Shown piece by piece: positions 1 to 3,000 of a stretch of DNA of 64,000 bases (its first letter is position 1; each line of letters starts with the position of its first letter). This DNA comes from a plasmid. The position numbers were made by a program. The DNA is taken from NCBI RefSeq assembly GCF_053078305.1, contig NZ_CP166875.1; one strand, given 5' to 3'.

Positions 1-3000
1 GTGGATAAGTCGTCCGGTGAGCTGGTGACACTGACACCAAACAATAACAACACCGTACAACCTGTGGCGCTGATGCGTCTGGGCGTCTTTGTACCGACCC
101 TTAAATCACTGAAGAACAGTAAAAAAAATACACTGTCACGTACTGATGCCACGGAAGAGCTGACACGTCTTTCCCTAGCCCGTGCAGAGGGATTCGATAA
201 GGTTGAGATCACCGGCCCCCGCCTGGATATGGATAACGATTTCAAGACCTGGGTGGGGATCATTCATTCCTTTGCCCGCCATAACGTAATTGGTGACAAA
301 GTTGAACTGCCTTTTGTCGAGTTTGCAAAACTGTGTGGTATACCTTCAAGCCAGTCATCCCGCAGGCTGCGTGAGCGCATCAGTCCTTCCCTGAAGCGCA
401 TTGCCGGTACCGTGATTTCGTTTTCCCGTACCGATGAGAAGCACACCCGGGAATATATCACCCATCTGGTACAGTCAGCCTACTACGATACTGAGCGGGA
501 TATTGTGCAGTTACAGGCCGATCCCCGCCTGTTTGAACTGTACCAGTTTGACAGAAAAGTCCTTCTCCAGCTTAAGGCGATTAATGCTCTGAAGCGACGG
601 GAGTCCGCCCAGGCACTCTACACCTTTATAGAGAGCCTGCCCCGGGATCCGGCACCGATATCGCTGGCGCGGCTGCGTGCACGCCTCAATCTGAAGTCTC
701 CTGTATTTTCCCAGAACCAGACGGTCAGACGGGCAATGGAGCAGTTGCGCGAGATTGGATATCTTGATTACACGGAGATCCAGCGGGGGCGGACAAAATT
801 CTTCTGTATTCACTACCGGCGTCCCCGGTTAAAAGCGCCGAATGATGAGAGTAAGGAAAATCCGTTGCCACCTTCACCTGCGGAAAAAGTCAGTCCGGAG
901 ATGGCGGAGAAGCTTGCCCTGCTTGAGAAACTGGGCATCACGCTGGATGACCTGGAAAAACTCTTCAAATCCCGCTGAATATAAACTGTAGTCAGTGAAG
1001 AGCGCTCCTTTACTGACTACAGCTTATATTAACTGGTGCAGTGAGTGGTCTGCTCACTGCAGTTTATATTCTTGTTCCCTGCAGTGCTGTTTGTAGCTGA
1101 GCTGCCATCTGCCTGTCCCTTACGTAAGTGATCCCGTAACCTGATGCTGAGGCATTGCTCCCTTCATAAAACATGACTTACTCACTACAGCTTATATACA
1201 TGCTCCAGCTTATGTTATGTCTGTTCTGCTGACCACAGCTTATATAAGGAAGCGCGTATGCCGTCACCTCAGGGGAGGCAGTGTACGCAGGATCTCCGCA
1301 GCATCCCGCCCGTCACCGGTGAAAGGCACTGCCAGCGTGGCAGCCATATCCAGCGCAAACACTCTGGTATAAACCTCCATCGAACGTGGATCCCTGTGAC
1401 CGACCAGTGCCTGGATGACTTTCCGGGGCTGGCGGTGATAGAGCATGTGCATGATATAGCTGTGCCGGAAGGTGTGTGGTGTGACCGGAATCGAAAAGTG
1501 AACCCCGTCTGCTTCGGCCCGTCTGACAGCCTGCTTCAGCCAGTTGCGCATGGTTTCGTCGGTCACGGCCCATAATGGTTCACGACGCCGGGGCCGGGTG
1601 GTGATCATCCAGCTTTCCATCTGCCTGACATAGCTTATATCTGTCAGCGGAACCAGGCGGACTTCATCTTTTGGCGGGCGTCCGCGTCGCGCACGCACTT
1701 TTTCGGACAGGATCCGCACAAACGGTCGCAGACCATCCAGATCAAATGATTCCGGCGTCAGCATCCGGGCTTCGCCAATACGCATTCCGGTATTCCAGAG
1801 GGTGGCAAACAGCATATGGTGACGCTGATCCGGCATATAGAAGAGAAGGGCACTGACTTCCGGAGCCAGCAGGTAGGCCGGTGTGGCCCCCGTGGAAGTG
1901 GCCATTCTTCTCAGGGAGAGCGCTGTTGCAAAATCCACCCCCGGCGCAATGGGTAACAGGGAGACGCGTTCTGGTGAATTCTGCAGGGGAATGACATTGT
2001 TCATGAGTTATTTTTCACGTAGCACACGCACTGTTTATGGATACAGGTATTCTGACCTGAACGCCCGGATCCTTCCACGACAATAAATCGCAGCGCGCAG
2101 ATCCTTTTGTTTGCTTATCCCACATTATCGCGGGTAAAACCAAATTGGAAAAGGATTCTTTTTTTGCTCAGATCCTTCATGAAGCCAGTAATGAAGCGGG
2201 TGTAGGGCTGTTTTATCGTTTTTGGGAGAATTGGGGTAATACCAGGACGCTAATGATCTATCAATGGATGGATGTAAGTGACAATTGAAAACTGAAAAAT
2301 GCGCTATGTAGATTCTGACAGATTTATGCACCTGAAATACGTTCAAAATCCACATAGCGTAACTCTGATTTTCCTTACCAGAAAAAAGAGGGGGAATAAC
2401 CAGTATCTCCCCCCCCCCACACACAATTGCAGAATAATAAATTATAAAAATAAGAACTCAGGATTTATATGCATGATTACATGTGATATTACTGAGAAAT
2501 ATTTTGAGATAACATCTTTTTGCTGATTACTTAAATATCTTGACTTTATCATTTGTAAGGTTGCTCCATATTTTTTTAGATAGCGTCCATATATCCTTGT
2601 AATCTTCTGTAATAACAAATCACCATCTGGAGTCAGGTAAATATTCTTACTACGTCGATCTTCCTTACTTTCCATACGCCTAATAAAACCAAATTTTTCT
2701 AGAGAATCAAAAACTCTGGTGATATTTGTTCTGGAAATATCTAATTTTTCACTGAGTTCAGTTGGAGATAAGAAAAAATTATCAGCACTGGATAAGAGGG
2801 CCAGAACCATAAGCTTTGTATCATTTATACCCCCCCTTCAGGGATGAATTAATATTATCAGTAAGTTTTTTGGTAACACGCATACAAAGTTGTAAAAGGA
2901 GATGCTCCTGAGCTGGATATGATTGCTTATTCTGTTGTTGATAGATAATAACTTTATTAAGTAATTTAATAATATTCATTCCATTAACTTTTTTTAAATT

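Follow-up and report, generated by a model that had tools for sequence, protein, structure and literature searches.

Phase-variable homopolymeric tracts, or contingency loci, are exemplified by the poly-C and poly-G runs that occur in promoters or open reading frames in Neisseria, Bordetella, Haemophilus and Campylobacter. Homopolymeric tracts of Bordetella have been surveyed (PMC1891110). Here we analysed a run of ten C on NZ_CP166875.1, an IncFIB plasmid that encodes enterohaemolysin (ehxCABD) in Shiga-toxin E. coli, within a stretch of 64,000 nucleotides that was examined as a whole and that we call the window. Like contingency loci, this tract is a C/G homopolymer of 9 nt or more, beyond the length of about 7-9 nt or more at which such runs are liable to slip, and its length differs between very close relatives, a variation to which sequencing error is a possible contributor and which is consistent with slipped-strand mispairing. 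Unlike contingency loci, it lies 3′ of a pseudogene stop codon, outside any supported ORF and neither in nor next to promoter elements, and no expression switch is attributable to it. Because its position is in neither an ORF nor a promoter, we did not file it as a contingency locus.

A described counterpart of the locus itself is the papX region of pO157 Sakai (AB011549), downstream of hlyD/ehxD. The two regions are orthologous, sharing the order repFIB, recombinase, papX-like gene, hlyD and 89.8% identity over 1.1 kb; in pO157 Sakai the regulator is annotated papX and its neighbours hlyD/hlyB. They differ at the tract: pO157 reads ATCCCCCCT, an interrupted C6 of constant span in the O157 isolates listed, whereas the run in the lineage of the window is uninterrupted, expanded and variable. 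Our searches of the literature for the tract, for pO157 papX and for terminators of ehx returned nothing specific, and no description of a tract or terminator at this place.

Direct reading of the sequence bore out the C10 homopolymer of the first-pass annotation (CCCCCCCCCC, 2409-2418; G10 on the transcribed minus strand), together with the ACACACA, or (AC)3A, that adjoins it at 2419-2425. This second element is slightly variable: plasmids of the O157 type have TACACA in its place, and in one copy, L017, C8 is combined with an extra AC. The tract had been placed 24 nt beyond a MarR-like stop and about 400 bp upstream of a recombinase start, and both distances held: the gap to the stop codon (2442-2444) of ORF 2442..2810 on the minus strand is 23-24 nt, and 405 nt separate the tract from the start of ORF 1264..2004, also on the minus strand. 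Pfam agreed with the proposed identities of both genes (MarR, PF01047, E=4.5e-12; Phage_integrase, PF00589, E=1.1e-14).

The tract is the longest homopolymer in the 64-kb window and its sole C/G run of at least 8. The same decaying gene holds the one other C/G run of at least 7, a C7 at 2830-2836, at a distance of 410 bp. When the window was simulated with Markov chains (order 1, 3 and 5), 0.03-0.08 C/G runs of at least 10 were expected per window, and 2.5-6% of simulations contained any; the length of the tract exceeds chance. Just two other runs of at least 9 nt, of either A or T, are present in the window: T9 at 4184-4192, which falls inside ehxD (A9 on the coding strand) and leaves ehxD intact in the window, and A9 at 25654-25662.

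At its start the window resembles a complete STEC virulence plasmid, and the ORF list places repFIB at 1-978 on the plus strand. The minus strand carries the tyrosine recombinase of the IncFIB backbone (1264..2004), the PapX/MarR-like regulator pseudogene (2442..3021, consisting of ORFs of 66 aa and 122 aa with a MarR Pfam match) and, as assigned from the ORF list and Pfam, ehxD (3106-4545), ehxB (4549-6666) and ehxA (6719-9733). Every gene from ehxA down to the recombinase, the papX-like remnant included, is on the minus strand, and repFIB is convergent with this series. In the close relative STEC17-183, ehxC lies upstream of ehxA, and the place of ehxC in the series rests on that annotation. 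A megablast search recovered the same gene arrangement in 396 plasmid records, pO157 Sakai among them, and the nearest complete relatives are non-O157 STEC plasmids that also carry YadA-like adhesin and colicin genes.

Alignments of about 2,700 non-ehx IncFIB plasmids to the query run out at its position 247-249, equivalent to window 2246-2248, and the conserved region upstream of the recombinase therefore stops at about 2248, some 160 bp short of the tract. Since backbone homology ends there, the tract lies outside the recombinase's native upstream region; it is part of the tail of the low-GC haemolysin segment. The same distance of 160 bp from the backbone end disqualified the tract as the junction of the low-GC hly cassette with the IncFIB backbone.

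Several sequence features surround this boundary. Inside the conserved backbone, upstream of the recombinase start, a 13-nt direct repeat occurs three times at 2062-2177 (CGCCCGGATCCTT and variants) and could be a protein-binding or recombination site. The window shares with STEC17-183 and 2014C-4705 a 9-bp indel, TTGGGAGAA, at 2222-2230 that is missing from STEC435, STEC1585 and CFIAFB20190157 and that keeps the frame of an annotated 76-aa hypothetical ORF. From the end of the IncFIB backbone at about 2248, a 140-bp segment leads to the hairpin described below; it holds a 30-nt imperfect inverted repeat (2289-2318 and 2343-2372), 73% complementary, with a 13/14 core of GCGCTATGTAGATT and AATCCACATAGCGT. 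Further away, Rfam matched PK-repZ, the repZ regulatory pseudoknot, at 41944-42094 on the minus strand (166.7 bits) and a ColE1-type RNAI at 17466-17571 on the plus strand (59.8 bits), which implies that the window holds parts of further replicons besides repFIB.

The papX-like frame upstream of the tract is split into a 66-aa ORF (2821-3021) and a 122-aa ORF (2442-2810), and the break falls at the second C tract, the C7 at 2830-2836. Plasmids of O157, O121 and O43 carry CCATCCCCC at this site and those of O91 carry CCATCCACC; the C7 allele of the window looks like the loss of 'AT' relative to CCATCCCCC. An intact homologue of 164 aa is found on the porcine ETEC plasmid ETEC1731 (L012, 2599-3093). 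Judged by its broken frame, the regulator next to the tract is a frameshifted, dead gene. Chromosomal papX/sfaX 3′ ends were tried as comparators for the tract and rejected, their 65% homology being confined to the coding region.

Invariant length across isolates would have spoken against the proposal that the tract is prone to slippage; we found it variable, with 7-15 C in near-identical plasmids. Orthologous loci were drawn from complete plasmids, draft genomes and one metagenome assembly, the draft and metagenome copies being located by an exact 122-aa MarR fragment, for which the index gives 6401 blocks. With the window-type allele defined as CT-Cn-ACACACA, 14 copies were usable, and their tracts measured 7, 8, 9, 9, 9, 10, 10, 10, 10, 11, 11, 11, 13 and 15 C. 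The shortest is C7 in 2014C-4705, followed by the C8 with an extra AC in L017, C9 in L014, L015 and L020, C10 in the window, STEC435, L018 and L021, C11 in STEC1585 and L019, C13 in CFIAFB20190157 and C15 in L016; pSTEC2018_166-a reads C8, IS2, C8. Across 856 bp (2250-3105), the flanks of 11 window-type copies differ at just 3-4 SNP sites, and in the same comparison the tract reads 7, 9, 9, 10, 10, 10, 11, 11, 13 and 15; extra copies beyond these 11 read 8, 9 and 10. Adjacent A6 and G5 runs are invariant in these copies, and the C7 run of the papX-like remnant differs in one, 2014C-4705, where it is C8. The window and L018 share a T variant at 2553, and both have C10.

Two copies of the region have been interrupted. 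In NZ_CP075633.1 (pSTEC2018_166-a; L010, 2610-3956) a 1331-bp IS2 sits inside the poly-C, flanked by C8 on either side. IS2 duplicates 5 bp of its target, so this arrangement implies C11 before insertion. In AP026756.1 (pO165; L011, 1440-1530) an IS2 end in the opposite orientation abuts CCAGTATCT, 9 nt from the tract. Together, the two insertions indicate that the small hairpin region was struck by IS2 twice, independently.

Shorter, interrupted alleles behave differently from the expanded run. Among the records listed, the O157 allele ATC6T (span 218 nt) is constant in 41 and 45 rows, the O121-type allele ATC7T (span 219 nt) in 14 rows, and the O91/O113-type allele ATC5T (span 217 nt) in 8 rows. 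Stability of C5-7 runs combined with drift of uninterrupted runs of C8 and above is the signature expected of slipped-strand mispairing.

All sequencing platforms have difficulty with long C/G runs, and the polymorphism might accordingly be an artefact in which one true length has been miscalled differently between assemblies. The assembly of STEC17-183 (NZ_CP075653.1, pSTEC17_183-a; L001/L022) illustrates the concern: beside a C3 tract it shortens the nearby A6, the G5 and one T run, amounting to four homopolymer contractions in 2.4 kb, and RefSeq annotates its ehxD, ehxB, ehxA, ehxC and YadA-like adhesin genes as frameshifted. We dropped its C3 allele as evidence because the assembly is full of homopolymer frameshifts, and we regard this public 'complete' plasmid as unfit for indel or tract-length comparison. 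The 14 other assemblies, however, come from varied laboratories and sources (RefSeq complete, draft NCBI, ENA metagenome) and contain no other homopolymer discrepancy in the 856 bp, bar the C8 at the C7 site of 2014C-4705. Moreover, a spread of 7-15 exceeds typical miscalls of plus or minus 1, and the closest relatives repeat the same value, as do the window and L018. Sequencing or assembly error at so long a homopolymer could account for some of the length differences; that it accounts for all of them is, in our estimation, unlikely.

We consider it reasonably probable that the tract is a hypermutable homopolymer, likely to be functionally silent, in the 3′ non-coding tail of the PapX/MarR-like pseudogene. 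Under this model, an older interrupted motif, AT-C5-7-T, would have given way in one ehx plasmid sub-lineage to an unbroken stretch of 7 C or more, and a run of that length would then undergo slipped-strand mispairing in replication and drift in length, across the 7 to 15 seen. The pseudogene, papX′, is the last gene of the minus-strand series ehxC-A-B-D-papX′, after which the minus-strand G run and an invariant CCCCC would form a hairpin that, with UCUUUUUUCU behind it, has the look of an intrinsic terminator. As about five G fill the stem, additional G's would be tolerated and length would not be selected. The tract itself, its variable length, its place and the lack of an overlapping supported ORF or promoter-like site are what we observed; slippage as the cause, the terminator role and neutrality are points that we infer, and the last of them rests on absence of evidence.

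On the minus strand the order of elements is G10-AGAUACUGGUUAUU-CCCCC-UCUUUUUUCU. The G run (2409..2418) is the length-variable 5′ arm; a loop region of 14 nt (AGAUACUGGUUAUU, 2395..2408) follows, in which RNA folds place a small internal helix of 2-3 bp; the 3′ arm, CCCCC (plus-strand G5, 2390..2394), is fixed by sequence comparison; and the U-rich tail UCUUUUUUCU (2380..2389) lies directly 3′ of the hairpin in both sequence and folds. The CCCCC is predicted to pair with the G run and is succeeded by UCUUUUUU. In MFE folds of the minus strand, CCCCCUCU was the partner of the G run for three alleles, those of the window, O157 and 2014C-4705. Every locus read has the G5 arm except the error-ridden STEC17-183 (G4), and no reliable allele falls below 5 C. 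The 79%-identical homologue of ETEC1731 also keeps the G5 and C5 arms, with a different loop sequence.

This hairpin resembles Rho-independent terminators in that a G/C-rich stem on the transcribed strand, beginning 23 nt past the stop codon, leads directly into a U-rich run (UCUUUUUUCU, 2389-2380 on the minus strand), and in that the arms are conserved in all alleles. It departs from them in having a loop of 14 nt where a compact one of about 3-8 nt on a continuous stem is usual, and just five G-C pairs with G-U extensions; the distant homologue in ETEC1731 lacks the U tract, and a strict consensus terminator scan of 1900-3200 called 0 sites. Fold z-scores were unremarkable, at only -1.0 to -1.8. 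A terminator role for the predicted hairpin is plausible but unproven.

If the hairpin does terminate transcription, the length of the G run might tune it, by altering hairpin stability and by sequestering the U tract through G-U pairs, and would thereby modulate read-through from ehx/papX′, both into the recombinase gene and, in antisense, into repFIB. The uniform minus-strand orientation from ehxA to the recombinase, with repFIB convergent, suits such an arrangement. When n was varied in silico, the predicted stability of the hairpin core rose from -10.8 kcal/mol at n=5 to -16.6 kcal/mol at n of at least 11, and the core was lost at n of 3 or fewer; the small gain up to n of about 11 came through G-U pairs, and longer runs paired into the U tract. 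The energy change nonetheless saturates at n of at least 11, neither the strict scan nor the fold z-scores give evidence of termination by the hairpin, O157 plasmids manage with a fixed C6, and no phenotype is tied to tract length. We regard a tunable terminator as quite improbable, and the specific proposition that a length-variable terminator arm sets the level of read-through from the haemolysin/papX-like unit to the recombinase gene and, in antisense, to repFIB as having only a slight chance of being correct.

The functional role implied by the first-pass annotation was not supported: the tract is 3′ of the stop codon, in no family-supported ORF, and spanned by no promoter-like pair. Two ORFs cross it, 2125..2424 on the minus strand (99 aa) and 2299..2526 on the plus strand (75 aa). 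No Pfam family was found for the minus-strand through-reading ORF (2125..2424), and the RefSeq version of this small ORF starts at 2355, so that only the part downstream of the tract is kept; we rejected a coding role on these grounds. For promoters, synthetic alleles of n=5-16 were scored on both strands with a cut-off of at least 8/12 hexamer matches, and no sigma-70-like -35/-10 pair spanned or overlapped the tract at any of these lengths on either strand; a separate promoter scan of the window locus likewise gave no pair near the tract. A role as promoter spacer was discarded on the strength of both results. A known RNA element was rejected, as 1900-3200 gave no Rfam match at E of 1 or below.

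A true contingency locus, in which length governs promoter spacing or strength for ORF 2125-2355 and/or the recombinase, or changes an ORF's reading frame, is very unlikely: the run is long enough and polymorphic among close relatives, the two ORFs do cross it, and a weak pair TTGTGT...GATACT (7/12 matches) would be spaced 15-19 nt apart only if n=12-16, but stronger hexamer pairs are missing from both scans, the crossing ORFs are without family and the RefSeq start lies beyond the tract, the conserved region upstream of the recombinase ends well before it, and the lengths are broadly scattered over 7-15 with no clustering in this small, unsystematic sample.

Collectively, our results suggest that the tract probably does not matter as a biological switch. 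Were terminator tuning nevertheless true, a 'phase-variable terminator' would link a virulence operon with plasmid maintenance, which would be unusual among contingency loci. As a fast-evolving marker, the tract could help to separate very closely related STEC isolates carrying saa/ehx plasmids, and it could also serve as a marker of assembly quality; it is a known source of trouble when assemblies of these plasmids are compared or put through SNP pipelines. On a small scale, it illustrates for E. coli a homopolymer instability that sets in above a length threshold, with C5-7 stable over hundreds of isolates and runs of C8 and above variable.
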